NCBI GenBank assembly: GCA_963810935.1
Contig: CAWEPK010000008.1
Span: forward strand, 1 to 64,000
Direction: 5' to 3'
DNA from: an uncultured delta proteobacterium
GTDB lineage: Bacteria; Desulfobacterota; Syntrophorhabdia; Syntrophorhabdales; WCHB1-27
Length of the DNA: 64,000 bases
Under the pieces are notes generated by a model that saw only the letters and a program-made list of their open reading frames with translations, was not told where the DNA came from and did no database searches. Numbering within the stretch: position 1 is the stretch's first letter; every line of letters starts with the position of its first letter. This document shows positions 11,228-28,617 of the stretch, in pieces. The position numbers were made by a program, and so were the translations under genes.

Positions 11228-11261
11228 TTGACTATCGTAGTATCGGGTGTTATATAGCGAT
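11228..11261 (+). promoter_or_regulatory. sigma70 promoter overlapped by a ModE-type operator
   Basis: TTGACT-N17-TATATA; ATCGTAGTATC-N6-TATATAGCGAT (11234-11261) resembles the ModE box; lies upstream of modA. Confidence 0.7.
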
Positions 11262-11298
11262 GAAAGGCGAAAGACGAAACGCCTACAGGGAGGAAACA

Positions 11299-12042
11299 AT
11301 GAAGAGAATAGCAATCCTGGTTTTTGCCGCAGTTTTCCTCTTTGCCGCTGCCGCAAGCGCGGCAGAAGTCAATGTATCGGCTGCGGCTTCCCTGCGCGAG
11401 GCGGTAAACGCCCTGACGGACAGTTTCGCGAAGCGGAACCCCGGCATCGAGTTTCGCAACAATTTCGGCGGGTCGGGTGCGCTGGCAAAACAGATCGAGA
11501 ACGGGGCGCCTGCGGACGTCTTCTTTTCCGCAAATGTCGAGTGGATGGACTACCTCAGGGGCAAGAAACTGATTGACGACAAAAGCGTCTTCACGTTCGC
11601 TTACAACGTCCTTGTCTTTGCGGGAAAGCCGGACGTGAAAGCGGAGAAGCTTCAGGACATGGTGCGGCTAAGGAAGATTGCGATAGGCAGCCCCAAGAGC
11701 GTGCCCTGCGGTGAATATACGATGCAGGCATTCAAAAACGCCGGCATCGAGAAACAGGTCGAAAACAAGCTCGTCATGTGCCGGGACGTGCGTGAATGCC
11801 TCCTTTACGCAGAACGCGGCGAGGTGGACGGCTCCTTCGTTTACAAGACCGATGTAGAGACGGCGGGGCAGAGCGTCAAGGTCCTCTTCACGGTGCCGCA
11901 GGAATATTATTCCAGGGTGACCTATCCGGCAGGGCTGACCGTGGCGGGCAGCAAGAAGGCGGAAGCCGGCGCGTTCGCCAAATTCCTCCAGTCGGCGGAG
12001 GCAAAGAAGATACTCGCGGGGCATGGTTTCGTGGTAAAGTAA
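11299..12042 (+). CDS. modA: Molybdate ABC transporter substrate-binding protein
   Basis: SAAASL, FGGSGALAKQIENGAPADVFFSAN; signal peptide; SD GGAGG. Confidence 0.95.
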   Translation: MKRIAILVFAAVFLFAAAASAAEVNVSAAASLREAVNALTDSFAKRNPGIEFRNNFGGSGALAKQIENGAPADVFFSANVEWMDYLRGKKLIDDKSVFTFAYNVLVFAGKPDVKAEKLQDMVRLRKIAIGSPKSVPCGEYTMQAFKNAGIEKQVENKLVMCRDVRECLLYAERGEVDGSFVYKTDVETAGQSVKVLFTVPQEYYSRVTYPAGLTVAGSKKAEAGAFAKFLQSAEAKKILAGHGFVVK

Positions 12043-12046
12043 CCGG

Positions 12047-12733
12047 ATGATCGGCTTCACGCCTGCCGATTATTCGGCGATCTACCTGTCTCTGAAGGTG
12101 TCGATCACGGCGACGTTGATATCGCTTCCTTTCGGTTTCGCCGTCGCCTACCTGATGACGTATCGGCGGTTCAGGGGGAGAGTGGGAGTGGACGTTGCGG
12201 TGAACCTCCCCCTGACTCTGCCTCCCGTTGTGATCGGCTACCTGCTGCTCCTTTTGCTCGGCCACCAGGGACCTATCGGTAAGTTCGTGCTCCAGCCCCT
12301 CGGCATAAAGCTGATCTTCACGTGGAAGGCCGCAGTCCTGGCCACGGCAGTGGTCGGTTTTCCGCTCATGGTCAGGTCGATACGCACGGCCATGGAAGCC
12401 ATCGACGAGCGGCTCGTCAACGTCTCGCGCCTTCTCGGGGCGCGGACCCTCGACACTATCATTACCGTAATCGTGCCCCTCTCCGTGCGCGGGATCATAG
12501 CGGGCTCCGTGCTCATGTTCGCGCGCGGACTGGGCGAATTCGGCGCGACCGTCATCGTGGCAGGCAACATCCCCGGCGTCACGCAGACAATACCACTCGC
12601 CATTTATGAATATGCAAGCTCGCCGAGGGGCGACGTCATGGCCCTGAGCCTATGCGCTGTATCCGTTACGATCTCCATTGTTGTCCTAGTTTTTCATGAG
12701 TGGCTCGGAAGGCGCGTAGTGAGGGCGGATTAG
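12047..12733 (+). CDS. modB: Molybdate ABC transporter permease
   Basis: LPLTLPPVVIGY and FARGLGEFGAT. Confidence 0.95.
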   Translation: MIGFTPADYSAIYLSLKVSITATLISLPFGFAVAYLMTYRRFRGRVGVDVAVNLPLTLPPVVIGYLLLLLLGHQGPIGKFVLQPLGIKLIFTWKAAVLATAVVGFPLMVRSIRTAMEAIDERLVNVSRLLGARTLDTIITVIVPLSVRGIIAGSVLMFARGLGEFGATVIVAGNIPGVTQTIPLAIYEYASSPRGDVMALSLCAVSVTISIVVLVFHEWLGRRVVRAD

Positions 12734-12735
12734 GT

Positions 12736-13788
12736 ATGGAGCTACGGGTAGCGGCGCAGAAACGGTTCGGCGGCTTTTTCCTCGATGTAGATTTCACCGT
12801 GCGGGGTGACCGCGTCGGTGTCTTCGGCCCATCGGGCTGCGGAAAATCGACGATGGTGGGCCTGGTCGCCGGCCTTACCGCTCCGGACAAGGGCGTGATA
12901 ATCCTCGACGGGGAGACGCTTTTCGATAGCTCGACGGGGCGCAACGTCCGGGCGGAGCAAAGGCGCATAGGCATGGTTTTCCAGCGGCCGAGCCTGTTCC
13001 CCCACCTGAGTGTGAAAGGCAATCTTATGTACGGCTACAAGAGGTGCCCGCCCGACCTTCGCAAAATCGAATTCGGCGACGTGGTGGAGGTACTGAAGAT
13101 TTCGAGCCTCCTCGATCGGGGCGTAAGGCACCTTTCGGGCGGGGAGAAACAGCGGGTGGCGCTCGGCCGGGCGGTGCTCGGTAGCCCGCGCCTGCTGCTC
13201 CTCGACGAGCCCCTGTCCGCCCTCGACGACAATCTCAAGTTCCAGATAATCCCTTTTCTGAAAAATGCCTGTGAAGCCTTTAAAATTCCGTACCTGTTTA
13301 TCTCTCATTCGTTGCTCGAGATGCGGATCATGACGGACGCCGTGCTCCATGTCGCGGAAGGCCGTGTTATCGGGCAGACAACCGCCGAGGACCTTACGCG
13401 GGCCGCCATGAGCGAGACCACAGGCTACACGAACCTACTCCGCCTGCCTGCGCCCCGCCGGCTCGACGGGCTGTATGCCTACAGTTGGGGCGGCCTGGAG
13501 CTATTCATCTCTTCCGGGAGCGATCAGCCGGAGGTGCTCTTCGAGCTTCCGGCAAGGGACATTATCCTATTCAGCGGCAAGCCCCAGGCGATCAGCGCCC
13601 GCAACCTGCTCAAGTGCAAAGTCGCGGGCGTATTCGAGGCCCGCGGCTCGGTCGGCATCGAATTGGAATGCGGAAGCGGCCGCCTGGTGGCCGAGGTGGT
13701 CAGGCAAGCCGCAGACGAGCTTGGCATAAAGCCAGGAGGCGAGCTTTATGCAGCGATCAAGGCGACGGCGTTCAGGAGGCTCGGTTAG
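12736..13788 (+). CDS. modC: Molybdate ABC transporter ATP-binding protein
   Basis: GPSGCGKST, LSGGEKQR and C-terminal TOBE/Mop (ISARNLL...IKA). Confidence 0.95.
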   Translation: MELRVAAQKRFGGFFLDVDFTVRGDRVGVFGPSGCGKSTMVGLVAGLTAPDKGVIILDGETLFDSSTGRNVRAEQRRIGMVFQRPSLFPHLSVKGNLMYGYKRCPPDLRKIEFGDVVEVLKISSLLDRGVRHLSGGEKQRVALGRAVLGSPRLLLLDEPLSALDDNLKFQIIPFLKNACEAFKIPYLFISHSLLEMRIMTDAVLHVAEGRVIGQTTAEDLTRAAMSETTGYTNLLRLPAPRRLDGLYAYSWGGLELFISSGSDQPEVLFELPARDIILFSGKPQAISARNLLKCKVAGVFEARGSVGIELECGSGRLVAEVVRQAADELGIKPGGELYAAIKATAFRRLG

Positions 13789-13829: not shown

Positions 13830-14750
13830 TCATCCCCGCCAACGCAGGAGCCGTTTTTCCGCCCGGTCCAGACAGAATATTATCCCGGTCACAACAAAGC
13901 CGATAAAGATGATGCCGGCGATGACCCGTTTGTAATCTGCGAAGTCGGAGAAGTATTTCACGTACCAGCCCAGGCCCGATGTGGCGCCTATCATCTCAGC
14001 TGCCGTCAGCAAAATGAATGACAGAACGAGTCCTATGTTTGCCCCGGCAATGATGGACGGCAGGCAGGCGGGCAGGATCACGCGGAAGAGCATGGTTCGT
14101 TCCCCTACGTTCAGGGCCCGAGCCGAGTCTATGATCCGCCGGTCCACGGTGAACACGCCGTTCAGGGTGTTGATAAAGACCGGCCAGAAGGCGCCTATGA
14201 AGATAATGAACATGGAAGACAGCATAAACGTCGGGAAGACAGCAATGGCGTAAGGGATATAAACGATGGGAGGGATCGGTCCCAGGATCCTAGTCAGTGG
14301 GGTGACGGCCCTGTGCAGGCGCTTGTGCCAACCGATGACGAGGGCCAGCGGTATGGCGGCCGCCAAAGCCGCCACGTACCCCGCCAACAGAAGCCTGAGC
14401 GAGCTTGCAAGCCCCTTCGCCAGCTCACCCGCGTCCCCTGCCATGAGTATCATGATCTGATTGGGGGTCGGGTAGAGTATACGATCGAGAAGGTCGAGCC
14501 TGGTGGTCGCCATCTCCCAGGCGAGGAGGGATAGGTATAAAATGGCCGTCAGGTCGCCCGCGGTCTGTATTCCGGAGTAGCTATGACCTGCAACAAGGAA
14601 GACGACATATAAAGACTCCACTGCGAGGACGAACCAAAGCAGTTGGGTGCCCGCTGCTCCCGGACGTCCCGTGGGCATGAACAAGAGCACGGCTGCGAAA
14701 ATGAGAAAAAGAAAGTTTGCCGGTGACAGGAACCGTCTGGCGACGTCCAT
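13830..14750 (-). CDS. ABC transporter permease (SsuC/TauC-like)
   Basis: PIPPIVYIP, EAA-like loop and AAEMIGATSGLG. Confidence 0.9.
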   Translation of the reverse strand: MDVARRFLSPANFLFLIFAAVLLFMPTGRPGAAGTQLLWFVLAVESLYVVFLVAGHSYSGIQTAGDLTAILYLSLLAWEMATTRLDLLDRILYPTPNQIMILMAGDAGELAKGLASSLRLLLAGYVAALAAAIPLALVIGWHKRLHRAVTPLTRILGPIPPIVYIPYAIAVFPTFMLSSMFIIFIGAFWPVFINTLNGVFTVDRRIIDSARALNVGERTMLFRVILPACLPSIIAGANIGLVLSFILLTAAEMIGATSGLGWYVKYFSDFADYKRVIAGIIFIGFVVTGIIFCLDRAEKRLLRWRG

Positions 14751-14756
14751 ATCTTA

Positions 14757-15656
14757 TTACCTCTTTGCTATCCTTTCCGATCCTGCGCCGGCGTCGGCAA
14801 GGAATAGCTCTTCATCCTCATGGAAGAGATCGAGTACTTCATTGCGTAGATGCACGTACGCATCTTGCTTCATGATGGCCGTCCTGCGGCGAGGACGCTC
14901 GAAAGGGACGGTAAACTCCCTAAGCACCGACCCGTAGCGGGCCGACATGACCACGACCCGGTCAGCCATAAGGATCGCCTCGTCCAAATCATGGGTAATG
15001 AAAACAACTGTTTTTCGCGTGTTGCCTTCATCGCGGAGATGTAATAACAGTTCTTGCAGGGCCACCCTGTTCCTGGTGTCGACTGCGCTGAAAGGCTCGT
15101 CCATAAGCAGGATATCCGGGGACATTGCGAAGGCCCGCGCGATAGCGACCCGTTGCTGCATACCGCCCGACAACTGCAAAGGGAATTTGTCGCCCAGCCC
15201 CGCGAGGCCGACCATCTCCAGATAACGGTCGGCATGGTCTTTCAGCTCGCGCGCACTTGCGCCGGGACGGACTTGCCTGAGACCGAAGGTAATGTTGGTC
15301 CGGGCGCTCATCCAGGGGAAAAGGGAGTAATGCTGGAAGACGATTCCCCTCTCAATCCCGGGGCCGGTCACCTCCTTTCCGTCAAGGAGGATCGTCCCGC
15401 CGGTCGGCCGTATGAGGCCGACCAGGAGAAACAGGAGCGTGCTTTTGCCGCAGCCCGAAGGTCCGACTATGCTTACGAACTCCCCGGTGCCGACAGAGAG
15501 GGACATACCGTTCAGTACGGGTACGCTCTCGGGTCCCGTGCCATAAGCGAAAGAAACGTCCTGCAAAGCCAGCTTATTGATGACACATCCTTTGTCCATG
15601 CCTGAAAACCCTTTACATGGTATCGGGCGACGTCCGCTTGCGAATCCGGCGGACAT
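14757..15656 (-). CDS. ABC transporter ATP-binding protein (SsuB/TauB-like)
   Basis: GPSGCGKST, LSGGMQQR, LLMDEPF and FITHD. Confidence 0.9.
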   Translation of the reverse strand: MSAGFASGRRPIPCKGFSGMDKGCVINKLALQDVSFAYGTGPESVPVLNGMSLSVGTGEFVSIVGPSGCGKSTLLFLLVGLIRPTGGTILLDGKEVTGPGIERGIVFQHYSLFPWMSARTNITFGLRQVRPGASARELKDHADRYLEMVGLAGLGDKFPLQLSGGMQQRVAIARAFAMSPDILLMDEPFSAVDTRNRVALQELLLHLRDEGNTRKTVVFITHDLDEAILMADRVVVMSARYGSVLREFTVPFERPRRRTAIMKQDAYVHLRNEVLDLFHEDEELFLADAGAGSERIAKR

Positions 15657-15673
15657 CGCCTCCCTTCGGCCCT

Positions 15674-16704
15674 CTAAGCGTTACGCAGCTTATATTCCTT
15701 CGCTAGTCGCTGATAGACAGGGTCTTTAGGCGCTTCTTTGAGAATGGAGTCGAGCGCTTTCTTGTAGAGGTCCGTATTCAGGTGCTTGTCGATGTCTACG
15801 TTCGTGCCCGGCTCTATATAGCCGACTTTGCGCATGTTCTCCCAGAAGTGCACGGACCCTTTCCTTCCGGGGTCCGGGTGGCTATCGCAATGGCCGCCGT
15901 AAGTTTCCTCCATGAGGACGTCCTTGTCGACCTTTACATACTTCGCGATGATATCGACCGTCTCTTCTTTTCTCGTCTGGTAGAAGCGGTATGCCTTGAT
16001 GAGGGCCCGCAGGAAATGGACGTAGTCATCAGGTTTCTCGCTCAGCCTGCCGGTGAGGGCCACCTGGCGGCAGCAGGAATGGTCCTTCTCCACCGTGTCC
16101 GTGTAGAGCGCCGTCTTTAGGCCCATCTTCTCGCAATTTTTCAAATGGGGCGACCAGACCATGCCTGCGTCCACCGTCCCTTTCTTTACCGCTTCGAGGA
16201 CGGCGCCGGGCGATTCGAGTTCCAGCAGGGTCATATCCTTCTTCCAATCGACCCCTGCCCGCCGCAGGGCTGCCCGGAAGACGACGTCGGCCGTGGAGAG
16301 CCGGACGGTGGCGATCCTCTTGCCTTTGAAGTTTTTCAGGCTCTTGAATTCGTTTACGCGGTCCGCCTTCGTCACCAGCCCGCTGCCTCCGTTCTCCATC
16401 TGCCCGCCGAACATGGTGAATGGGCTCCCGTTTGCGATGAACTTGAGGGGGGCGGTCGTGCCGAAAGTCCCTGCGTCAAGCCTGCCCGCGAGAATGGCGT
16501 TCATGCCCTCGCCCGAGTTGTTGAACAGGAACAGTGTGACGTCGAGTCCCTCCTCCTCGAAGAAGCCTTTCTCCTTGGCCACGAAATAGAGTACGTGGCC
16601 GGGGCTCGCCAGGTATCCCGCGTTGAACCTCTTGAGCTCTTGGCCCAGGCGGGCGCCGCAGACAGAACGGCGCCGATCAATGCCATCACTATAAATCTTT
16701 TCAT
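15674..16704 (-). CDS. ABC substrate-binding protein (SsuA/NMT1-like) with a Cys-Cys motif; apparent 1-nt deletion near 16642
   Basis: Signal peptide MKRFIVMALIGAVLSAAPAWA lies in a different frame from ELKRFNAGYLASPGH...AKEKGFF; HSCCRQ motif. Confidence 0.85.
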
Positions 16705-16765
16705 AACCTTGATCCTCCTTGCTGTATTCAAACGATCCGGCTACGCCAACCGTTTGGCGTATTCC

Positions 16766-17788
16766 CTAATTCCCCTTTACGGCGGCTGTCATCGCCTTGA
16801 TATGCGCTATGGGAGTAGAAGTGCTCAGGCCGCACGCGGGGGAGATTATATCCACATCGTCCCGAACCAGTTTCCTTGCCGTCTTTGCGATCTTGCCGGC
16901 AGGGCCGAATTCCAAAAGGTACGTGCTGACGTTCCCCATCGTTGTCAGTCGCGGGTATGTCTGCTTCAAGCCGCGCAGGCTCACCATGGCATCTGTACTG
17001 ACTGCATCGGCTCCTATCGCGGGGATAAGATGCGCGACAGCCTTCATGTCCCCGCAGATATGAACTATGACGGGCGTGTCTGCATCACGTACGGCTTGCA
17101 CGATCTTTTTCAGATACCTGACCGCGTACTCTTCAAAGGTCTTCGGCCCGAGTATCTCTCCTGAGGCGGTAGGGTCGGCTATGCAGACGGCGTCCGCTCC
17201 GCTCTCGACAAGCGACCTCGCATACGCGATCAGGAAGCGGCTTACGTGGTCGATTATCCGGTGCGAGTTTTCCCTGTCCTTCCTCAGCTCCTTAAGGAAC
17301 GCGGAAGGGTCCACCAGTGAGGCGGCGGCCGTGACCGGCCCCGTGATGTTCCCGATGACGGGGATATCCGGATATCTGCGGGACAGGATGCCCGCCGCCC
17401 GGACGACCGTACGAATGCGACTTGAATTCAGCAGATCGTTAATATCCTTGCACACCACTTTCGAGACGGAGGGAAATTTTTCTTTCGCGACCTTCGGCTC
17501 GCAGGTGAGGCTGCCGTAATCGATTTCGCTCCCCATGGCCTGCGCCTCGGCGGTGACGTCGAAAGGAACACCCAGGTTCTCGAAGCCCGTCTGCTCGTGT
17601 ACATCGTAGGCAAGCTCCGCCATGAGCGTGCTGTCAGTGTGGGCTTCGGGCAAACGGTGGCCCGTCTTTCTCATGATGTCCACCACGGCAGCGTTCATCA
17701 TGCCGCCGGCGCAGATTACGGGCGGCCGGTCCGGTGTTTTCTTCGCCAGGACCGCCATCAACCGCTCTTTGGGGTTCAATGCAGCCAT
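16766..17788 (-). CDS. MtaA/CmuA-type methylcobamide methyltransferase (UroD family)
   Basis: VHICG and SPACGL Zn ligands; GPVTAA. Confidence 0.85.
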   Translation of the reverse strand: MAALNPKERLMAVLAKKTPDRPPVICAGGMMNAAVVDIMRKTGHRLPEAHTDSTLMAELAYDVHEQTGFENLGVPFDVTAEAQAMGSEIDYGSLTCEPKVAKEKFPSVSKVVCKDINDLLNSSRIRTVVRAAGILSRRYPDIPVIGNITGPVTAAASLVDPSAFLKELRKDRENSHRIIDHVSRFLIAYARSLVESGADAVCIADPTASGEILGPKTFEEYAVRYLKKIVQAVRDADTPVIVHICGDMKAVAHLIPAIGADAVSTDAMVSLRGLKQTYPRLTTMGNVSTYLLEFGPAGKIAKTARKLVRDDVDIISPACGLSTSTPIAHIKAMTAAVKGN

Positions 17789-17790
17789 GA

Positions 17791-18858
17791 TTATTTTTTT
17801 GCCACCAGCGGCGAATGCGCCGGGTCTCCACCTATCTCCGCGGCCGTATCGAGCATGGCCCGTATGTTCTCGAAAGGGGTGTCGATAGGCAGGCTGCAGC
17901 CGGAACAGATCACATAGCCCTTGGGGTTGTCATGGGCCTGCCTGACGCATTGGATAGTCGCTTTGCGCACGTCTTTCGGCGTCCCCGCGTACATCACGCC
18001 GGAAGGGTCAACGTTCCCCGTAATGCGCACCCTGTCGCCCACCCGCTCCTTGCACTCGGAAAGGCTCGCGACGTTATCGATGCTGAGGCAGTCCGCCCCT
18101 GTGTCGGCCATCCCCTCCCAAATCTTGTCCGTCTTGCCGCATATATGGAGCGTGACCGGTTTGCCCCTGGAGTGTACATGGGCGATGAGCCGCTTAAGGT
18201 ACGGGAATGAATACTCCATGAAATGTTTGGGACTGACGATGGTGGTGGACGACATGGGCTCGGAAACGGTCGGCGTTAGCCCTATATCGATAAAGGCGTC
18301 GGCGTACCGGACGGCCGTCTCAAAAGAAACGGCGCACAGCTTGTGCACCGCTTCGGGGTCTCTGGCTAGGAGCCTTGACAGTTTCTCGACGCCGATCAGG
18401 AAAAACGCGTTCGTGAATGGACCGACGACGCCGCCCGAGCAAGACACTTCCGCCCCCAGTGCATCGATGACTATTTTGGCGGCTTCGAGGTGGGAAGGAA
18501 GGCGGCCGTCATGGTATGGGTCTGCCGGCTGAATGTCGTCTATCCCGGCGAGGTCGGTTATGGCGGGCGCTTCCAGGTCGGCCGTGTCGTCTACCGGATA
18601 GCAGACCTTTGCCCCCATGGCCTCCGCCTGGACGTAAAGGTCCGTAAAGGGCCTGACGCCGTCGTATGCGAACATGCGGTAAGCGGCGATGTGGGCTTGT
18701 GCGATCAGTTGTCCGTTGTTCCTGAACTCGGACACCTTACAGCCGATAACCCTTGCTGCGCCGTTCGCGATATTCGGGTTGCAAGGCAGGCGGTCTATCC
18801 TTTCCCCTTTGTTGTAAGCGATCATCCGCTCAAGCGAAGTTATACGGTCTCTATCCAT
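17791..18858 (-). CDS. Second UroD/MtaA-family methyltransferase
   Basis: GPFT, LHICG, GNVDP and CSGCSLP. Confidence 0.85.
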   Translation of the reverse strand: MDRDRITSLERMIAYNKGERIDRLPCNPNIANGAARVIGCKVSEFRNNGQLIAQAHIAAYRMFAYDGVRPFTDLYVQAEAMGAKVCYPVDDTADLEAPAITDLAGIDDIQPADPYHDGRLPSHLEAAKIVIDALGAEVSCSGGVVGPFTNAFFLIGVEKLSRLLARDPEAVHKLCAVSFETAVRYADAFIDIGLTPTVSEPMSSTTIVSPKHFMEYSFPYLKRLIAHVHSRGKPVTLHICGKTDKIWEGMADTGADCLSIDNVASLSECKERVGDRVRITGNVDPSGVMYAGTPKDVRKATIQCVRQAHDNPKGYVICSGCSLPIDTPFENIRAMLDTAAEIGGDPAHSPLVAKK

Positions 18859-19513
18859 TGTCCAAGCCTCCTGTCAGCTTACGGGCCAGCTTCGCCGCGA
18901 GCGATGCGTTTGCGGCATAGCCGTTCGCGCCTATCCGCTCAGCGAATCCTTTCGAGATGGGCCCGCCGCCGACCATCACCCTGACCCGGTCTTTCATGTT
19001 GCCTTTTTTCAGAAGCGCCACGACTTCTTTCATCCCGTTCATCGTAGTCGTCATCAGCGTGGAGAGGGCGATGATCCGTGCGTCCGTCTCTTTCGCCTTT
19101 TCGATAAACGCCCTGGGGGAAACGTCCCTCCCGAGATCGACGACATCGAAGCCTGATGTCTCCAGCATGATCTTCACGAGGTTCTTGCCTATGTCGTGGG
19201 TATCACCTTCAACCACGCCGATGACGACCTTTACCTTGGTCCCGCCGTCATCAACGGGCAGGTGCGACTTGAGGACATCGAGGCCGGCGTACATGGCGTC
19301 GGAGCAAAGCAAGAGCTCCGGTATAAAGTATTCCTCCGCTTCATAGAGCTTACCGGCCCTGTTCATTCCGTCGGATAGACCCTTGTTGATTGCCCGATAG
19401 GCGTCGAGTTTGCCATCTGCCACCGCTCTCGATATTCTCACGGTTTCTTCTTCATCCATATCGAGAACGGCGTCCGAAAGGGATTTATATAAACGTTCTT
19501 TTAGTATTGCCAT
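18851..19513 (-). CDS. Methyltransferase-cognate corrinoid protein
   Basis: GDTHDIGKNLV, STLMTTTM and MVGGGP B12-binding motifs. Confidence 0.92.
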   Translation of the reverse strand: MAILKERLYKSLSDAVLDMDEEETVRISRAVADGKLDAYRAINKGLSDGMNRAGKLYEAEEYFIPELLLCSDAMYAGLDVLKSHLPVDDGGTKVKVVIGVVEGDTHDIGKNLVKIMLETSGFDVVDLGRDVSPRAFIEKAKETDARIIALSTLMTTTMNGMKEVVALLKKGNMKDRVRVMVGGGPISKGFAERIGANGYAANASLAAKLARKLTGGLDNG

Positions 19514-19691
19514 TTATCTTATCTCACAATGTTTTTGTAAACCCCGGATAGTTCCTTTCGCACCTCTTTATGGTGCGGTGTTCCGGCCGTGGCTGAGCAT
19601 CCGCCTTTCCGCAAAGAAAGGCTTCTTCAGCGCTATAGCCGATGTTGGATGAGTTTACGAAAGGAGGAATAAGGTGGGGGGGAAGATCAAG

Positions 19692-19817
19692 CTAGAGGGG
19701 AACGACCGGACGATGAGACACCTCTCCCTCCTTCCGTGACATTTTAAGGCCTACCCTAGGCCTTTCGCGGCCATACGCGACCGCTCACGTGAGAGAAAAG
19801 GGCGCCTGACGAGGCAT
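19692..19817 (-). CDS. Putative selenocysteine leader peptide A (MPRQAPFSLT-U-AVAYGRERPRVGLKMSRKEGEVSHRPVVPL)
   Basis: SD AAAGGAGGTGA; ATG 19817; in-frame TGA 19787-19785; hairpins follow; TAG 19694-19692. Confidence 0.65.
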
Positions 19818-19856
19818 GGTCTCACCTCCTTTACCTTTCAAGTCGAATCGTCCGTA

Positions 19857-19885
19857 ATGCTAAATTAAATATTTCCGTATGTCAA
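19857..19885 (-). promoter_or_regulatory. sigma70 promoter for leader A and the corrinoid operon
   Basis: TTGACA-N17-TAGCAT on the minus strand. Confidence 0.75.
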
Positions 19886-19941: not shown

Positions 19942-19990
19942 TAAGCAGCAACGCGCACTCGCAAGTAAAAATAAACAGTAAAGGTGTGCA

Positions 19991-20095
19991 ATGTTCAAGA
20001 TTTGCGCGTGAATTGAAACAGGGGCGCCGGGTGGCGCGCTTGGCTTCGCCTCCATACGTCGGGTAATGGAGCAGTCTCTCCTCGCGGTCGTTTAA
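19991..20095 (+). CDS. Putative selenocysteine leader peptide B (MFKICA-U-IETGAPGGALGFASIRRVMEQSLLAVV)
   Basis: SD AAAGGTG; ATG 19991; TGA 20009-20011; SECIS-like GCGCC-GGGT-GGCGC with the loop starting at +18; TAA 20093-20095. Confidence 0.65.
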
Positions 20096-20114
20096 CCTTC
20101 CAGGGCTTCTCCTT

Positions 20115-20144
20115 GCGGCCGGCGCATGCCGGCCGTTGTTATTT
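20115..20144 (+). terminator. Attenuator-type terminator in the selD leader
   Basis: GCGGCCGGC-GCAT-GCCGGCCGT followed by TGTTATTT. Confidence 0.6.
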
Positions 20145-21281: not shown

Positions 21282-21734
21282 ATGAAGGAATTCGAGCCCA
21301 ACATTGTTGCGTATTGTTGCGAGTACTGCGGGTATGCCGCAGCCGACCTTGCCGGCTCCATGCGGATTTCGTATCCCGCCAACGTGAAGATCGTCAAGAT
21401 CCCGTGCACCGGCAGGTTCGACATCATCCACGCACTTAAGGCCTTCGAGTCGGGTGCGGACGGGGTCTTCCTCGTTGGATGTCTCGAAGGGAATTGTCAT
21501 TTCGAGACAGGGAACCTGCGGGCCAAAAAGCGGGTCGAACATCTCCGCCGCCTGCTGGACGAGTGCGGGATAGGCGGCGACCGCTCGGGCATGTACAACA
21601 TGTCTTCCGCAATGGGCAGGCAGTTCGCGGAAGCGGCACGCGAGATCACGGAAAAGGTAAGGTCGCTTGGACCCAACCCTGCGAGGAAAGCGAGGAAGAG
21701 GGGCGGCGAACACACCGTCGGGGCAGCCCTGTAG
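21282..21734 (+). CDS. mvhD: MvhD/FlpD-type [2Fe-2S] hydrogenase delta subunit, Cys form
   Basis: CCEYCGYAAADLAG, PCTGR and GADGVFLVGCLEGNCHF. Confidence 0.9.
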   Translation: MKEFEPNIVAYCCEYCGYAAADLAGSMRISYPANVKIVKIPCTGRFDIIHALKAFESGADGVFLVGCLEGNCHFETGNLRAKKRVEHLRRLLDECGIGGDRSGMYNMSSAMGRQFAEAAREITEKVRSLGPNPARKARKRGGEHTVGAAL

Positions 21735-21782: not shown

Positions 21783-21811
21783 TTGACTTTGCGCGGGTGC
21801 CCTTATACTAT
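21783..21811 (+). promoter_or_regulatory. sigma70 promoter for leader C
   Basis: TTGACT-N17-TACTAT. Confidence 0.7.
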
Positions 21812-21844
21812 ATATGTGGCCGGTGCAATCGCCGGCAGGATAAA

Positions 21845-21946
21845 ATGATGAAAATATACGGGATAATATTTGTTCCATTGAGCTGAGAAGCGAGCGGGAG
21901 GCCCGTGAGGTCTCCACTTCCGTCCGCTGCCGCTTCACCGCCCTGA
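21845..21946 (+). CDS. Putative selenocysteine leader peptide C (MMKIYGIIFVPLS-U-EASGRPVRSPLPSAAASPP)
   Basis: SD AGGA; TGA 21884-21886; then 10 nt and GGAGGCC-CGTGA-GGTCTCC; second TGA 21944-21946. Confidence 0.7.
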
Positions 21947-21960
21947 CCCTTCTTTTTTGG

Positions 21961-22019
21961 ACCTCTCGGGAAATCCGGGCGCGAAGATGTCGCGGCCGGA
22001 TTTTTTGTCTCCGGGAGGT
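21961..22019 (+). terminator. Terminator / SD-sequestering hairpin upstream of the double-cubane reductase gene
   Basis: AAATCCGG.GCGCGA-AGATG-TCGCG.GCCGGATTTTTT; the outer ACCTCTCGG pairs with CCGGGAGGT, which contains the SD. Confidence 0.7.
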
Positions 22020-22023
22020 TTAA

Positions 22024-23211
22024 ATGCCTGACAGCAATCAAATATATCCATATGCGGTCGAGCCGCTGATCGAGGACGACTACGCAGGCGAGCCGCCCGC
22101 CAAGCGCCTCCTTGCGTATCTTCAGAGCCGGCGCGAGGCCGGCTCTAAGATCGTGGGCATCTACTGCGGCTACGCGCCGGTAGAGATAATCCGCGCCCTC
22201 GGCCTCGTGCCCGCTTCGCTCTGCGCGTTCTCAAACGCGACGATAGAAGCTGCTGAGGCGGTGCTGCCCGCCAACCTTTGTCCCCTTATAAAATCGAGCT
22301 ACGGCTTTATCATGAAAGACGCCTGTCCTTTCTTTGCGGTCTCCGACGCGGTGGTGGCCGAGACGACGTGCGACGGCAAGAAGAAGATGTTCGAGCTGAT
22401 CGCAGACCGCAAGCCGATGCACGTCATGGACCTGCCGCAGGTGCCGGACGAGCCGGAGGCGCTCGACAACTGGACCACGATGATCCGCAAGCTTCAGAGG
22501 TTCCTCGAATCCGTGTTCGGCGGCAAGGCAACCGACGAACAGATAGAGTCTGCCATCCATGACACGAACGAGAAGGCCCGGCGCATGAATGAGATATTCG
22601 AATACGCGGCCCTCAACCCGCCGGTGATAGGGTGGCCCGAGCTTTATGACGCCCTTTTCCTGGGCCAGGGCGCATCGGGGGCCGACCTCGCGCCCATACT
22701 CGACGGGATGCTTGAGAAGCTCGAAAAACGAAAACGCGACGGTTACGTCTATGGGCCGAAAGGCGCGCCCAGGGTCATGGTGACGGGGTGTCCCGTAGGC
22801 GGTGATTCGCTAAAGGTGCTTACGGCGATAGAAGAGGCGGGAGGGGTAGTCGTCGCACTCGATTCATGCTCCGGCATGAAGCCCTACGCGGACTACATCG
22901 AAGAAGGCACGGGGGACCCCGTGCGCGCGATGGCTGCGCGATACCTGAAGGTCCCGTGCTCCTGCATGACGCCGAACAGGCGCCGGCTCACGGAGATTGA
23001 CAGGCTTATCGAAAAGTTCAGGCCGGACGCGGTCGTGGACGTAGTCCTCCAGGGGTGCCATTCGTACAACATAGAATCGATCAAGGTGGGTGAGAGGGTG
23101 CGGACGAACCACGGCCTGCCTTTTCTCACCGTAGTCACCGATTACTCACAGGGCGATATCGGGCAGATGCGGACGCGAATGGAGGCTCTTCTGGAAATGT
23201 GCAGGCAATGA
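22024..23211 (+). CDS. Double-cubane-cluster reductase (2-hydroxyacyl-CoA dehydratase D family)
   Basis: YCGYAP, LCPLIKSSYG, CPFF, ETTCDGKKKM, DSCSG, PCSCMTPN and GCHSY. Confidence 0.85.
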   Translation: MPDSNQIYPYAVEPLIEDDYAGEPPAKRLLAYLQSRREAGSKIVGIYCGYAPVEIIRALGLVPASLCAFSNATIEAAEAVLPANLCPLIKSSYGFIMKDACPFFAVSDAVVAETTCDGKKKMFELIADRKPMHVMDLPQVPDEPEALDNWTTMIRKLQRFLESVFGGKATDEQIESAIHDTNEKARRMNEIFEYAALNPPVIGWPELYDALFLGQGASGADLAPILDGMLEKLEKRKRDGYVYGPKGAPRVMVTGCPVGGDSLKVLTAIEEAGGVVVALDSCSGMKPYADYIEEGTGDPVRAMAARYLKVPCSCMTPNRRRLTEIDRLIEKFRPDAVVDVVLQGCHSYNIESIKVGERVRTNHGLPFLTVVTDYSQGDIGQMRTRMEALLEMCRQ

Positions 23212-24390
23212 AGCCCATCTATTTCGATAATGCGGCTACCTCGTGGCCCAAGCCGCCCGCTGTGATAGAGGCGATGGCGCAGGTTCAACGACGCGGTAGG
23301 GGGCAACCCCGGCCGCTCCGGCCACAGGCTTTCCATCGAGGCGGCCCGCGTAGTCTTCGAGGCGAGGGAGCTTGTGGCGCAGCTTATCGGCGCCCCCGAC
23401 CCGCTCTCTGTCGTTTTCACGAAGAACGCAACGGAGGCGCTCAACTGCGTCCTTCTCGGCCTGCTCAAACCGGGCGACCACGTTGTCACGACGTCCATCG
23501 AGCATAATTCGGTGATGCGGCCCCTGCGCTTTCTCGAAGGGCAGGGCGTAGAGCTTTCCATTGCGCGCTGCTCGCCTGCGGGAGAGCTGGACCCGGAAGA
23601 CGCAGCGGCCTGCATGAGAAAGAATACCCGCGCCGTTGTGGCGACCCACGCCTCCAACGTCACGGGCACATTGCTTCCCATAGAGGAGCTTGCGGAAATC
23701 GCGCACCGGTACGATGCGCTCCTGGTTGCGGACGCTTCCCAGACTGCGGGCTGCGTCCCGATAGACGTTGCCGCATCGGGCATCGACGTCCTCTGTTTTA
23801 CGGGTCACAAGTCCCTCCTAGGTCCGCAGGGGACGGGCGGCTTCTACGTGCGCAAAGGGGTCGAAGAACGCCTTCTCCCGCTCATGCGGGGCGGCACGGG
23901 AAGCGCCTCCGAATCGGAGGAGCAGCCTGAGTTTTTGCCGGACAGGTTCGAGTCGGGCACACCCAACACCATCGGCCTCGCGGGACTCGCCGCAGGCGTC
24001 CGTTTCGTGCTTGACGACGGGGTAGGGCGCATCCGGGAGAGGGAGATCGGCCTGACGCGGCAGTTTCTTGAAGGGGCCGGGGCTATCCTGGGCATAACCG
24101 TTTACGGGCCGCCGGAGGCGGACCGGCGCACAGCCGTCGTCTCCTTCAACCTGAAGGGCGGGAGTCCGTCGGAGCTTGCCTTCGACCTCGACGAGCGTTT
24201 CGCCGTCCTGTGCCGTCCGGGCCTGCATTGCGCCCCTGCCGCGCATCGCACCATAGGCACCTTCCCGCAAGGGGCCGTGCGGTTCAGCTTCGGATTCTAC
24301 ACGACTGCGGATGAGGTCCGCGCCGGGCTGGCCGCTATGGCGCAATTGAGCGCCGAACACTATGCTTCCAAAGGAGGAACTAATGTCTGA
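23208..24390 (+). CDS. Cysteine desulfurase/selenocysteine lyase-family (class V PLP) enzyme; apparent 1-nt insertion near 23280
   Basis: IYFDNAATSWPKP is out of frame with NPGRSGH...EHNSV, TGHKSLLGPQG and RPGLHCAP. Confidence 0.88.
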
Positions 24391-24988
24391 GCTGGTGAAT
24401 GCGAAAGGCCTTGCCTGCCCGGAACCCGTTATACTGGCAAAAAAGGCGCTCGATGCGCATGACGAGGTTACGGTGCTGGTCGATAATGAGATGTCGCTGG
24501 AGAACGTGCAGCGCCTGGCCTCATCTTCGGGATGCGCAGTCGAGACTATAGCAGAGGCGGGCGGGGTCTTCCGTCTCGAAATAAAAAAACAGCAGGGCAA
24601 AGCGACGCCGTGCGCTGCGTCGCCGGGACCCGCGCCTGTGCAGAGCAGCCAGGGGCCTACCATATTCGTTATCGCGTCGAATATCATGGGCTACGGTAAC
24701 GACGACCTGGGCGCGCTCCTGATGAAAGCGTTCATCCATACGGCCGTTGACCTGGAACGCTTACCCGACATGATGATCTTATACAACACGGGTGTTAAGC
24801 TGGCCGCGCCGGATTCAGGCGCGCTCGACGACCTGAAGGCGCTCGAAGAGAAAGGGGTGAAGATACTCGTCTGCGGCACGTGCGTCAATTTCTTTGACCT
24901 GACAGGCAAGATCGGCGCGGGGACCGTCTCCAATATGTACGACATAGCGGGCGCGCTATCGAGTGCGGGCAGAATCGTGAAGCCTTGA
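24383..24988 (+). CDS. yedF: Selenium-metabolism protein YedF (TusA/SirA plus DsrE-like domains)
   Basis: KGLACPEPVI, YNTGVKL, LVCGTC and VSNMYDI. Confidence 0.85.
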   Translation: MSELVNAKGLACPEPVILAKKALDAHDEVTVLVDNEMSLENVQRLASSSGCAVETIAEAGGVFRLEIKKQQGKATPCAASPGPAPVQSSQGPTIFVIASNIMGYGNDDLGALLMKAFIHTAVDLERLPDMMILYNTGVKLAAPDSGALDDLKALEEKGVKILVCGTCVNFFDLTGKIGAGTVSNMYDIAGALSSAGRIVKP

Positions 24989-25224
24989 AGGAAGAGCAGA
25001 AGCAGCGTTACCTGGTTGCCATGTTCGCTTCCGTCAGCATGGTGATGAAGGCGGAAAAGATACTCAAGGCGGCGGGTGTCCCCCACAAGATAATTCCCGT
25101 ACCCAGGAGCATCAGCTCTGACTGCGGGGTCTGCATCCGCTTACTGCCCGAAGACAGGGAAACCGTAGTTGAGGCGCTCGGGGCCGAGGTGCGCGTGAGC
25201 GAGATACGCGAGCTGGAGCGATGA
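24985..25224 (+). CDS. DUF3343-family small Se/S carrier-like protein
   Basis: IPVPRSISSDCG motif; coupled to yedF. Confidence 0.8.
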   Translation: MKEEQKQRYLVAMFASVSMVMKAEKILKAAGVPHKIIPVPRSISSDCGVCIRLLPEDRETVVEALGAEVRVSEIRELER

Positions 25225-25275
25225 GGACTTGCTTATGAGCACAATGGCGTTTGCGTACGCCCGGAACGATAAGCA

Positions 25276-25735
25276 ATGACGCTCGACCTTGTGCGCCGGG
25301 TGGCGCTCTCACCCCGTTTGTATATACCTGTACGGCTCGGCCTTGCCGTTCTTTTTATCTATGCGGGCGCGGTAAAGCTCGCTGACCCGAGGGCGTTTGC
25401 CCGCACCATCTCCCACTACGGCCTCGTACCCGAACCCCTGCTGCCCACCGTTGCAGTGGGGCTGCCGGTAATGAGAGCTGCTCGCCGGTATTGCGCTGTT
25501 GTTAAATCTGGTGCCCGGCCTGCACGCCGTATCCGTCCTTCTTTTGCTCTTTGCCGGCGTCCTCGGCTACGGTTACTTCACCAATATGGATATAGACTGC
25601 GGCTGCTTCGGACAGCAGGAGCTGGCGGAGCACAAAGGCCTCGTTTATGCTTTTTATCGCGACCTCGGGCTTCTCGCAACGGTCGCGTTTCTTCACTGGT
25701 CGCGCATTGCGCGCAGCAGACCCGTTTCAAAATAA
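25276..25735 (+). CDS. MauE/DoxX-family membrane protein; apparent 1-nt insertion near 25473
   Basis: The FIYAGAVKLADP...GLPV frame joins the ELLAGIALL...IDCGCFG frame. Confidence 0.8.
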
Positions 25736-25755
25736 CAGACTGAGGGAGGTTTAAA

Positions 25756-26268
25756 ATGACGTTGAAAAAGACGGTTGTTGCGGCCCTGGTTGTTGCGGGT
25801 ATATTTTGCTTCGCAGGGTCGGGTAAGGCCCTGGCCGCATGGGGAGACAAGGAACTGGAGACGGAAAAAACGGCGGTTGCCTTCCAGCGGGAGGTTGTAA
25901 GGGGCGCATACAAGGTCGTGACGACCGAAGAATTGAAAGGCTGGATCGACCAGAAGAAGGAGATGCTGATCGTCGATACGATGCCCGCCGACAACTTCAA
26001 GAAAGAGCATATACCGGGGGCCGTCAACTTCCCCCTGCCTATCCCCGAAATGAAAGAGATGGACGCAAAGACGAAGGCCGATCTCGAGAAAGTCCTGGGG
26101 CAGAACAAAGACCGGCTGATTGTTTTCTATTGCGGCTTCACGAAATGCACGCGGAGTCATAACGGTGCGATGTGGGCGGTGAAGCTGGGCTACAAGAACG
26201 TTTACAGGCAGCCCGGAGGCATCAAGGCGTGGGATGAGGCGGGGTATCCAGTGGAGAAGTCTAAATAG
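25756..26268 (+). CDS. Exported rhodanese-like sulfur/selenium transferase
   Basis: Signal peptide; HIPGA, FYCGFTKCTRSH and GGIKAW. Confidence 0.88.
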   Translation: MTLKKTVVAALVVAGIFCFAGSGKALAAWGDKELETEKTAVAFQREVVRGAYKVVTTEELKGWIDQKKEMLIVDTMPADNFKKEHIPGAVNFPLPIPEMKEMDAKTKADLEKVLGQNKDRLIVFYCGFTKCTRSHNGAMWAVKLGYKNVYRQPGGIKAWDEAGYPVEKSK

Positions 26269-26968: not shown

Positions 26969-27645
26969 GGCTTGCCGAGCCTCTCCCTTACGAAATCGAG
27001 GGACGCGAGGACGCCGGACGGCAGATGTTTGTTGCGTTCCCGGAAGGCAAGAAGGTCGTCGTAGACATCGATGTCTCTCCAGACCGGCAGGATATGGACG
27101 CAGAGGCCGTGCCTTTTGAGCACGGCTATTGTCGTGTCGAATACGCCCGGTGCCCCCCATTCTACCCCTGAGAAAGGCGCATCGATCAGGGTCGCTGGCC
27201 GGAAGCCTATGAGGTAGTATCCACCGTCCGCTGCGGGGCCGATGACAACGTCCCGCGTCCGCAATCCCTCGAATGCCTCTTTCAGTAAGACAGATGGGAG
27301 GTCTGGGAAGTCGCTGCCTATGAGGACGGCCCGGGCGCAGCCCGAAAGGGCCTGCGCGAGCGCGGAGAACATCCTCTGTCCGAGGTCGGCCCCGGCCTGG
27401 GGCAGACACGTTATATCATCGCCGAGCCAAGCTGCGACGTCCTCTCGCGCGTCCGGCGGATGGAAGCGGACGAGCGGGGGGTAGCCCGCCTTGCGGGCGG
27501 TTGCCAGGATATCGGAGACACAGGCGCCATAAAAGGCCGCGGCATCGTCGTCGCCTATCTTTCGTGCAAGCCTCGTTTTGACCCGGCCTTTTTCGGGGAG
27601 CCTGACAAAAACGATCAGCCGTTCATCAGATGGCTGGTTTATCAT
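26965..27645 (-). CDS. DUF2064 transferase, rSAM/selenodomain-associated transferase 1 type
   Basis: GRVKTRL, DLGQRM, IGSDFP, GPAADGGYYLIG and DID. Confidence 0.85.
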   Translation of the reverse strand: MINQPSDERLIVFVRLPEKGRVKTRLARKIGDDDAAAFYGACVSDILATARKAGYPPLVRFHPPDAREDVAAWLGDDITCLPQAGADLGQRMFSALAQALSGCARAVLIGSDFPDLPSVLLKEAFEGLRTRDVVIGPAADGGYYLIGFRPATLIDAPFSGVEWGAPGVFDTTIAVLKRHGLCVHILPVWRDIDVYDDLLAFRERNKHLPSGVLASLDFVRERLGKP

Positions 27646-27651
27646 CGGCCC

Positions 27652-28609
27652 TCACGCTGTCTGGCCCTGGCACGAGCTCGCCCGCGCCCGCCGTGCACCC
27701 GTAGCAGTGGTCGCCGACGACGATGCGCCGGGCGGCAAGCGCGCCCGTATCGAAATCGGAGATGTGGTATGGAGCGCCGTGGTTTATCGTCAGGCCGAGG
27801 ACCTGATTGAAGTCGCAGTCGTAGAGGCTGCCGTCCCAGCCTACCGAGACGGTCGATTTGCACATCACGCCGCTCAAACTCGCCGGGTTGAAGGCAGCGA
27901 TAAGACTCTTCATATAATCCTCGTAATTGCCCGATGCGAGAAGATACTCAAGGTAGCGTCCTATGGGCATGTTCGTTATGCAGAAGAGATGGTTGAAGCT
28001 TACCCCGTGACGCTCGGCGAGGACCTGCCTGAAAAGCGCCTCAAGCCCTGCCTGCGATCCGGGGAGATATGCGCCTGCCGGGTTGTGCACGAGATCGAGG
28101 ACCAGTCCGCTGCCCTCCCGCCCGTAGCCGAGGGCGTTGAGACGGGCAATGACTCCGATCAGACCGGTGAAGACGCCTTCACCCCTCTGGCGCTCGGTCA
28201 GCCTGGGATCGACGTGGGGCAGGGAAAGGACGACCTCGATCCCGGTGGCTGCGTAAAGATCGATGAACGGCTCGTATCTCTTTTCCAGAAGGACGACGCC
28301 GTTGCTTCGCACGAGGACGCGCCGCCCGAGGGCGGCACATGCCTGCAAAAAAGGCCGCAGGCCGGGATGCAACTCCGGGCTGCCCCCCGTTATATCGACT
28401 ACGGGGATGTCCTGGCTGCGCACCACTTCGAGGCACTGCTCCATCACCCTATCCGGCATCACTTCCGACCGTTCGGGACCTGCCTGCACGTGGCAATGCC
28501 TGCATTGGAGGTTGCACCGGTAGCCGACGTTCACCTGGAGGACGCCGATGCCCGAGGCCATGATCGGCACCCGCGCCTTGTCCTCGAACGATGGTGAGAC
28601 TTTCGACAT
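27652..28609 (-). CDS. arsS: ArsS-like radical SAM/Cys-rich protein, Cys form; apparent 1-nt insertion near 27680
   Basis: CNLQCRHCH, DITGGSPEL and YDCDFNQ; removing one base restores the C-terminus HCYGCTAGAGSSCQG. Confidence 0.85.
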
Positions 28610-28617
28610 CCTCACTT

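Follow-up and report, generated by a model that had tools for sequence, protein, structure and literature searches.

A conserved leader with an in-frame UGA codon, a putative selenium sensor, precedes a corrinoid methyltransferase and importer operon in an uncultured member of the Syntrophorhabdia

A six-gene operon on the minus strand of contig CAWEPK010000008.1, from an uncultured delta proteobacterium (Desulfobacterota; Syntrophorhabdia), encodes a corrinoid methyl-carrier protein, two MtaA-like methyltransferases (MT1 and MT2) and an ATP-binding cassette (ABC) importer, and is preceded by a short leader, here designated leader A, which carries an in-frame UGA (Table 1). The window analysed comprises 64,000 nucleotides, positions 1 to 64,000 of this contig. 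The reading of the leader as a selenium sensor is well supported by comparative evidence, although unproven. The full proposal is that leader A may act as a ribosome-mediated sensor which leaves the operon ON at low selenium, the operon then importing and demethylating a methylated selenium (or sulfur/selenium) compound; we regard this proposal as evenly balanced between right and wrong.

Leader A consists of an extended Shine-Dalgarno (SD) sequence, a short open reading frame (ORF) that ends at the UGA and, if this codon is read as selenocysteine (Sec), an extension of the same frame which passes through a purine tract and ends just before a pyrimidine-rich tract. The extended SD, the in-frame TGA and both hairpins named in an earlier, sequence-only reading of this DNA are present, and so is the C-rich, G-poor tract that it placed after the stop, since the 70 nt which begin 10 nt before the extension stop contain 41% C and 9% G. 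Hairpin 1, which directly follows the UGA, was absent from that reading. No intrinsic terminator was found downstream of leader A. A search of the whole window against Rfam 15 at gathering scores returned only a tRNA, and at E values up to 10 there was no credible match between 19450 and 20200. At position 19789 the contig from one sequencing run has ATG for ACG (T to M) in the codon before the UGA, as in a same-genus relative, with the UGA intact. A further candidate, "leader C" at 25235, was dismissed because the start codon (ATG) of the following gene overlaps its TGA.

Table 1. Positions of the leaders, the six-gene operon and the neighbouring genes in the window
Feature	Position	Strand	Remarks
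Promoter-like site TTGACA-17-TAGCAT, sigma-70-like	19857-19885	-	10/12 matches; for the leader transcript
Extended SD AAAGGAGGTGA of leader A ORF	19822-19832	-	
Leader A ORF	19785-19817	-	ATG 19817; ten sense codons in all (MPRQAPFSLT); in-frame UGA 19787-19785
Leader A frame extension, UGA as Sec	19692-19784	-	30 codons, then TAG 19694-19692
Hairpin 1, GCGGTC-GCGTAT-GGCCGC	19767-19784	-	immediately 3' of the UGA
GGCC/GGCC hairpin	19759-19772	-	can form; first hairpin of the sequence-only reading
Hairpin 2, AAGGCCT-AGGGT-AGGCCTT	19746-19764	-	SECIS-like; loop begins 27 nt after the UGA
Purine tract GGAAGGAGGGAGAGG	19721-19735	-	within the extension; included in covariance model R1
Pyrimidine-rich, C-rich, G-poor tract	~19659-19686	-	just past the extension stop; candidate rut site or purine-tract partner
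Remaining 5' leader	19514-19658	-	local hairpins; weak SD ahead of the corrinoid gene
Corrinoid (B12-binding) methyl-carrier protein	18851-19513	-	Pfam B12-binding, B12-binding_2; NCBIfam MtbC/MtgC-like below cut-offs
MT1, MtaA/CmuA-family (URO-D fold) methyltransferase	17791-18858	-	HxC...C motif
MT2, MtaA-like methyltransferase	16766-17788	-	NF004889, 386 bits (cut-off 244)
NMT1/SsuA-like periplasmic binding protein	15674-16704	-	Pfam NMT1; signal peptide ATG 16704
ABC ATPase, nitrate/sulfonate/taurine type	14757-15656	-	Pfam ABC_tran; below cut-off: ntrCD 246 vs 292 bits, SaoA 233 vs 360
ABC permease, nitrate/sulfonate/taurine type	13830-14750	-	Pfam BPD_transp_1
Leader B, upstream of selD	19981-20136	+	SD; ATG 19991; 6 codons; TGA 20009-20011; hairpin GCGCC-GGGT-GGCGC 20024-20037
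Leader B, 3' part		+	extension to TAA 20093; intrinsic terminator 20115-20136 + T-run; then selD ATG 20192
selD	from 20192	+	divergent from the leader A operon
mvhD	21282-21734	+	
D-type leader ahead of the double-cubane gene	21783-21999	+	promoter-like site 21783; ATG 21845 (MMKIYGIIFVPLS); TGA 21884
D-type leader, 3' part		+	hairpin 21897-21915; extension 19 codons; second stop 21944; terminator 21975-21999 + T6
DCCP, double-cubane protein	22024-23211	+	
SclA-like cysteine desulfurase	23374-24390	+	N-terminus may be off-frame, 23199-23507
yedF	24362-24988	+	
Small DUF3343-like ORF	24985-25224	+	judged by eye; no NCBIfam match
MauE/DoxX-like membrane protein	25276-25743	+	looks frame-shifted
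Secreted rhodanese	25756-26268	+	

Leader A is one member of a dispersed class. A paralog with 77% identity occurs on another contig of the same genome (C1:6595-6709), with a similar TTGAC..TAGGAT site upstream, and BLAST analysis of leader A against 61 relatives gave clear matches in five other genomes. A covariance model built from seven leader copies (R1) matched 9 of the 22 genomes of the family and gave 19 matches in 16 of the 96 genomes of the class, whereas among 151 genomes sampled from the phylum, this one included, only the genome itself and three others matched, all three from one further family; with 30-150 candidates scored per genome, these counts are lower bounds. The class, referred to as class A, thus comprises 22 leaders (two of them on near-identical contigs of one genome) from three families of one phylum, the named relatives being Syntrophus/Syntrophaceae. 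The SD, the ATG, the short ORF, the TGA (22/22) and hairpin 2 are common to all, and AAGGAGGTGA or a near variant serves as the SD in most of the 22 printed homologs. The peptide before the UGA ends in P(F/L)SLx in 17 of the 20 tabulated leaders and in PSSR in two, while the peptides that read-through would add diverge freely beyond the part constrained by the RNA.

The two hairpins that follow the UGA differ in their degree of conservation. In an alignment of 18 copies, which was fitted to the model and hence favours structure, hairpins 1 and 2 taken together are paired in 94.7% of cells, compared with 87.8% in shuffled alignments, and none of 500 shuffles scored as high; the compensatory changes are also visible in a plain MAFFT alignment. 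Hairpin 2 is fully paired (100%) in 18 of 18 copies with both sides changed at four of its seven pairs, and hairpin 1 is paired in 86.7% of cells with both sides changed at two of six pairs, being missing from four of the 18 leaders, which are the AT-rich ones of yedE. The sequence-only reading had proposed that hairpin 2 alternates with the GGCC/GGCC hairpin. The former is borne out by its pairing and covariation, but the latter, although 91% paired (missing in 4/18), has a covariation score which 89 of 500 shuffles reach; it was thus rejected as a conserved structure, and the alternation is not backed by covariation. Frame 0 is free of stops over the 26 codons after the UGA in 19 of the 20 leaders, as against 1/20 and 0/20 for the other two frames, which is the pattern predicted by selection for read-through. 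The purine tract (13-14 purines in 14 nt) is found at the same place in 19 of 20 leaders, and a pyrimidine tract (at least 18 pyrimidines in 20 nt) in 14 of 20, compared with 6.4% of random 170-nt windows from the same genome.

The apical loop of a bacterial Sec insertion sequence (SECIS) element bears G/U and lies, according to published examples, 16-37 nt 3' of the UGA. Hairpin 2 of the class-A leaders presents an AGGNU loop 27 nt after the UGA on a covarying 7-bp stem, and similar loops accompany the selenoprotein genes of the same genome, i.e., GGUC at 27 nt in an HdrA-type gene, AGGU at 22 nt in an HdrL-type gene, and GGUCU and GGGCU at 18 nt in two FdhA genes. We infer that hairpin 2 is SECIS-like and that the UGA is decoded as Sec. 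The genome encodes selA, selB and three copies of tRNA-Sec along with its selenoprotein genes. The match to selB (G000:C5:224288-225450) falls into two adjoining parts, which cover profile positions 1-168 and 175-368 and both score under the cut-off; this may reflect a frameshift or an assembly break. The tRNA-Sec copies are on contigs C4, C6 and C11, and the estimated contamination of the genome is 7%.

The genes behind the class-A leaders are linked to selenium. Eight of the 22 leaders precede yedE/yedF (for yedE, 479 bits on TIGR04112 with a cut-off of 200) and five precede URO-D methyltransferase systems, namely the operon of the window, two MT-corrinoid-MT(-RACo) clusters whose corrinoid proteins are 64-65% identical to that of the window, and a methyltransferase with an SsuABC-like importer on two near-identical contigs. 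The others are followed by a double-cubane cluster protein (DCCP) and its activase (3/22; NF040772, 465 bits), HdrA-type genes (2/22), a Mo-hydroxylase (2/22, with a class-V aminotransferase next in one), a four-domain rhodanese (1/22) and a contig end (1/22). In a same-genus genome (L144, G002:C15, 150-2214), the signal peptide of the rhodanese behind such a leader is off-frame from a 552-residue rhodanese ORF, a possible assembly frameshift. The suggestion in the sequence-only reading that the leader is tied to selenium agrees with the conserved element, the selenium-linked genes downstream and the position of the operon beside selD.

Because the leader is conserved and the genes that it precedes are selenium-linked, it is read here as a sensor of Sec decoding whose genes would be ON when selenium is scarce. 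This direction of control is likely on three grounds. Both HdrA-type genes behind class-A leaders are Cys forms, with paralogs in the same genomes (76% and 79% identity) that have TGA at that Cys, and Cys isoenzymes would serve a selenium-poor cell. Selenium starvation of Methanococcus maripaludis raises yedE (+5.3 log2) and an Sdm-like corrinoid/methyltransferase locus (PMC11097638). The third ground is the modelled behaviour of a second leader family, the D-type leaders, which are predicted to terminate transcription on read-through.

D-type leaders have 12-13 codons that end in F(V/I)PL(G/S/D) and are followed by the UGA and a hairpin. The extension is 20 codons long, or 19 in two same-genus copies, and closes with SPP-stop in most copies; an intrinsic terminator comes after it. 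BLAST analysis found them in 24 of the 96 genomes of the class, and the genes behind them include double-cubane proteins, SclA-like enzymes, YedF/TusA, MvhD, a Cys-type HdrL, a Mo-oxidoreductase and an ABC ATPase. One such leader lies in the window ahead of the double-cubane gene, and at another locus (L061) a D-type homologous leader (68% column identity) precedes an operon orthologous to the six-gene operon. The terminator was modelled with the ribosome at the UGA and with the ribosome run through to the second stop. In these models its pairing probability rises by at least 0.3 on read-through in 16 of 20 copies, and from 0.0 to 0.72 at L061, so that Sec insertion is predicted to terminate transcription.

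The corrinoid protein and the two MtaA-type enzymes that the sequence-only reading had placed downstream of the leader are confirmed by Pfam and NCBIfam domains and by the HxC...C motif. MtaA (4AY7) is the best structural match of both MT1 and MT2, and both keep its zinc motif HxC...C, as expected for S/Se-methyl chemistry. Orthologs of the corrinoid protein (55-76% identity) adjoin MT1/MT2 in many phyla. The orthogroup of MT2 holds 2836 proteins at E values up to 1e-20, the best 120 of which have 59-80% identity, with named members from Syntrophus, Clostridia, Heliobacteria and Desulfuromonadales; across phyla, MT2 orthologs with 54-71% identity lie in corrinoid-MT-MT-RACo clusters of Clostridia, Acetivibrio and Geobacter. 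Among 80 loci with an MT2 ortholog, 71 have the corrinoid ortholog, 46 have MT1 and 26 have at least two parts of the ABC importer. The RACo gene directly follows MT2 in the four loci checked (L062, L072, L084 and L105), and the leader-controlled cluster of genome G014 includes RACo. No pterin-binding methyltransferase is present in the six-gene operon. No Sec paralogs of its six genes were found in the genome, so it is not a Cys back-up. A 24-residue fragment with 92% identity to the N-terminus of MT1 is encoded elsewhere (G000:C16:23936-24007), perhaps a remnant or an assembly fragment.

By gene content and zinc motif, the six-gene operon is of the make-up of the published type I mlp clusters. 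A role of these clusters, M. voltae SdmABC included, in methyl-selenium metabolism was proposed in 2023 by Kountz and Balskus, who report that ClMlp2 methylates selenide in vitro and that 87% of the species with type I clusters have the Sec machinery (PMC10418091). The idea of a bacterial Sdm counterpart with its own importer, put forward in the sequence-only reading, is thus consistent with this make-up, with the kept zinc motif and with the selenium island around the operon, but the idea of such a counterpart was already in print and is not new. The words "leader", "riboswitch", "upstream" and "promoter" do not occur in the available text of PMC10418091.

The importer had been described as SsuABC-like. 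It does belong to that fold family (NMT1, ABC_tran and BPD_transp_1), but all scores lie below the curated cut-offs: 113.1 against 163.5 for SsuA_fam, 49 against 300 for SaoX, 87 against 295 for SaoP and 103 against 342 for TauC. The signal peptide and the mature part of the binding protein are in different frames in the window. The contigs of the three runs that cover the site (three of four soil-metagenome runs, from one study) have an additional base after 16639 that brings the two frames together, and an ortholog of the binding protein is in frame. The frame break therefore counts either as a minor variant or, more probably, as an error of assembly, the base being missing at 16639-16640 within a short A/T run. 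As yedE was not found in this genome (93% complete), the importer may be a main route of selenium entry, and its presence would suggest that the substrate is soluble rather than volatile.

In the proposed mechanism, a strongly translated 10-codon ORF would stop at a UGA with a SECIS-type hairpin behind it. When Sec-tRNA(Sec) and SelB are available, the UGA would be decoded and the ribosome would continue for 30 more codons through the purine tract, to stop at the edge of the pyrimidine tract; when selenium is short, translation of the leader would end at the UGA. Read-through would keep the purine and pyrimidine tracts unpaired, and the freed pyrimidine tract would shut the operon off, most likely through Rho loading in leader A and through masking of the downstream SD in several relatives. 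If there is no read-through, the pyrimidine tract would be sequestered and the operon would be ON. The importer would then take up the soluble methylated selenium (or sulfur/selenium) compound, and the two Zn methyltransferases together with the corrinoid carrier would strip its methyl group to yield selenide or selenol, to be used by SelD, whose gene is adjacent and divergent. The two tracts are predicted to be paired in the minimum free energy (MFE) folds of all five copies inspected. Modelled read-through lowers the accessibility of the downstream SD by at least 0.15 in seven of 20 leaders, mostly those of yedE and double-cubane genes, and the yedE leaders contain a CCUUCCUCU box which in the models is able to pair with the purine tract or with the SD. 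Rho loads at rut sites, unstructured C-rich and G-poor stretches of about 70-80 nt, and a rho gene is present in the genome (700 bits).

Extending the proposal beyond this operon, Sec-codon leaders, in two families or more (class A and D-type), could be the chief means by which Syntrophia and relatives sense selenium in cis, switching on a starvation regulon of yedEF, double-cubane reductases, Sec-lyase-like enzymes, Cys isoenzymes and mlp-type clusters, within which the operon would be the uptake-and-demethylation route from a soluble methyl-selenium compound (methylseleninate, Se-methylselenocysteine or similar) to selenide for SelD. This wider picture is tentative, and we would place it somewhat below an even chance.

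Several results weigh against these proposals. Among the sequencing runs listed for the locus there is no RNA run. The duplex between the purine and pyrimidine tracts is no stronger than with random windows of the genome, 205 of 400 windows matching leader A and 23 of 400 its paralog, and it is weak in comparison with shuffled partners (median z -1.2); the helix was therefore rejected as an energy-supported element, and the composition result alone was kept. On modelled read-through, the SD accessibility in leader A shows no change (0.53 to 0.48), and SD masking was rejected for this leader, which makes Rho loading on the unmasked C-rich tract its more likely step in these models. Since class A lacks an intrinsic terminator (a terminator-like site occurs in 1/20 leaders), the switch step is conjecture. 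The D-type leader of the window and a same-genus copy form the terminator in both modelled states (0.92 and 0.98), and the terminator of leader B is present in every modelled state (MFE folds). The Mo-hydroxylases behind class-A leaders may themselves depend on selenium, in which case the opposite direction of control would make sense. A RACo activase is missing from the operon, and the three RACo genes of the genome lie elsewhere (C9, C12 and C16). R1 had no match at the 80 loci with MT2 orthologs, and a loose scan for SD, ORF, TGA and hairpin over 66.5 kb of upstream sequence, which overlooks loops without GGU such as that of the D-type leader in the window, gave a single match (L061), equal to the background rate. 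At least five of 12 corrinoid loci in the class have no Sec leader and show TATACTAT-like repeats near the promoter instead, and R1 together with the motif scan found no Sec leader before such clusters outside Syntrophia-type genomes. In addition, one type I clade was assigned to methyl-sulfur metabolism and methionine salvage (PMC10418091).

This last assignment bears on a rival reading, in which the leader does sense selenium, the operon acts on methylated sulfur (methylthiols, methionine salvage, sulfonium- or sulfonate-like compounds), and its place in the regulon has another reason, e.g., to spare or replace a selenium-dependent route. The SsuA family gives the best score for the binding protein (113 bits, under the cut-off), MtaA-like Zn enzymes act on thiols, and most orthologous clusters are without Sec leaders. 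The operon would, however, be co-regulated with yedE/yedF, DCCP and Cys isoforms, it adjoins selD, yedF and the SclA-like enzyme, and the lack of Sec paralogs and the frequency of the Sec machinery among species with type I clusters both speak for selenium, so that we consider a sulfur substrate unlikely, though it deserves to be kept in view. The same sensor might also work in reverse, read-through sustaining expression so that plentiful selenium would be needed for the operon to be ON, for instance to detoxify or recycle methylselenol that arises on the side in selenium metabolism. Translation through the UGA/SECIS of Treponema primitia fdhFSec sustains transcription (PMC3892789), recycling of endogenously formed methylselenide is raised by Kountz and Balskus (PMC10418091), the Mo-hydroxylases under the leader resemble a selenium-dependent XDH (334 bits, below the cut-off), and the terminators of leader B, of the D-type leader in the window and of its same-genus copy, which form in all modelled states, would fit as well. 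Nonetheless, Cys HdrA genes with Sec paralogs in the same genome stand behind the class-A leader in two of two cases, with one D-type case in addition, 16 of the 20 D-type models terminate on read-through, and the induction of yedE and Sdm-like genes in starved Methanococcus (PMC11097638) points the same way; the reverse direction thus appears improbable.

Two other explanations would do away with the leader peptide as a sensor. The hairpin might be a SelB operator that regulates the operon directly, with the short ORF serving only to deliver ribosomes or being incidental. Hairpin 2 is indeed the best-conserved part of the leader, and a precedent for SelB at the 5' region of E. coli selAB is said to have been described by Thanbichler and Bock in 2002. 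Yet the strong SD, the ATG, the fixed length of the ORF, the invariant UGA and the conserved P(F/L)SLx peptide point to decoding, as does the selective openness of the frame after the UGA, and an operator of this kind seems to us quite improbable. That leader A is a chance combination of ORF and hairpin, or a true selenoprotein of 41 residues with a function of its own, is hardly credible. A short ORF with TGA and nearby hairpin does occur at about 0.016 per kb when the motif is loosely defined, but a chance origin is contradicted by the 22 covarying homologs with their synteny to selenium genes and was rejected, and the free divergence of the read-through peptides past the RNA-constrained part speaks against a selenoprotein.

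Attenuators of the trpL and hisL type and tnaC exert control through a leader peptide, by the progress of the ribosome past a regulatory codon. As in the trpL and hisL attenuators, leader A would have a short, strongly translated ORF with a regulatory codon that ribosomes pass according to how much of one charged tRNA is available, and the position of the ribosome would pick between alternative RNA states, the D-type leaders even having the classic intrinsic terminator. Unlike in those attenuators, the step that we propose to be sensed in leader A is the recoding of a stop codon by SelB and Sec-tRNA at a SECIS hairpin rather than the speed of decoding a sense codon, failure meaning termination at the UGA, and class A is without an intrinsic terminator. 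The trp attenuation is also described in the report on T. primitia fdhFSec (PMC3892789), with which leader A would share the reading of selenium through UGA/SECIS decoding and the coupling of translation to transcription. In fdhFSec, however, the UGA belongs to the enzyme gene itself, where it encodes the catalytic Sec, and read-through leaves expression ON, whereas leader A is a dedicated, non-enzymatic leader ahead of genes without Sec codons, and its direction would be the opposite. That paper notes that leader-type control built on a rare amino acid was known from engineering but unreported in nature.

The type I mlp clusters, SdmABC among them, resemble the operon of the window in having a corrinoid protein and at least two MtaA-like Zn methyltransferases, no H4folate methyltransferase, and a location near selD and DCCP-type genes. 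They occur in Sec-using anaerobes (PMC10418091), and the Sdm-like locus is starvation-induced in Methanococcus (PMC11097638). The operon of the window differs in having no RACo gene as the Ram/RACE activase expected in such a cluster, in its Sec-codon leader and in the conserved SsuABC-like importer (26/80 related loci), which is not described in the available text of PMC10418091. Control of Cys isoforms and selenium genes by selenium status is also known for LysR_Se/HrsM, but these are proteins, transcription factors believed to respond to selenophosphate (PMC5322559), whereas leader A is a cis RNA/peptide element that would read the capacity for Sec decoding. The importer shares with SsuABC/TauABC and the Sao proteins of NCBIfam (SaoX/SaoA/SaoP) an NMT1-fold binding protein and an ATPase and permease of the family; it is set apart from Sao and SsuABC by its scores, all under the curated cut-offs, and by a permease without a Sec codon. 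In the literature searched, with subscription journals largely outside the search, no Sec-codon leader peptide or attenuator is described. The conserved importer and the Sec leader are thus the parts that were not found in print, and the closest precedent is the Sec-codon control inside fdhFSec (PMC3892789).

If the proposals hold, leader A would be a natural attenuator that senses stop-codon recoding, with the catalytic Sec codon of fdhFSec as the sole close precedent found in print, and leaders of this kind would provide a computational flag for a bacterial selenium-starvation regulon. They would also give testable functional links for YedE/YedF, double-cubane proteins, mlp clusters and the ABC importer, which have long been "selenium-associated" without a known role. 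Scavenging of organoselenium by syntrophic soil anaerobes would be indicated, which has a bearing on the cycling of selenium and on the reason for which these organisms retain Sec and Cys isoenzymes in pairs.

The operon forms one side of a selenium island in the window, the other side of which runs from leader B, selD and mvhD to the D-type leader, DCCP and onward (Table 1). A few kb from this island, a radical SAM/DUF3641 protein (27626-28780, minus strand) scores 382 bits on TIGR04167, an ArsS-type "(seleno)protein" family. A ModABC-type molybdate/tungstate transporter (11260-13788, plus strand) is convergent with the end of the operon. The genes induced by selenium starvation in M. maripaludis include one for a molybdate-binding protein (PMC11097638). 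At four of the orthologous loci without a Sec leader (L153, L156, L160 and L161), TATACTAT/TACTATAGTA-like repeated boxes surround a TTGACA promoter about 60-150 nt before the corrinoid gene, which suggests a protein operator, and two of these loci have a small conserved ORF just upstream.

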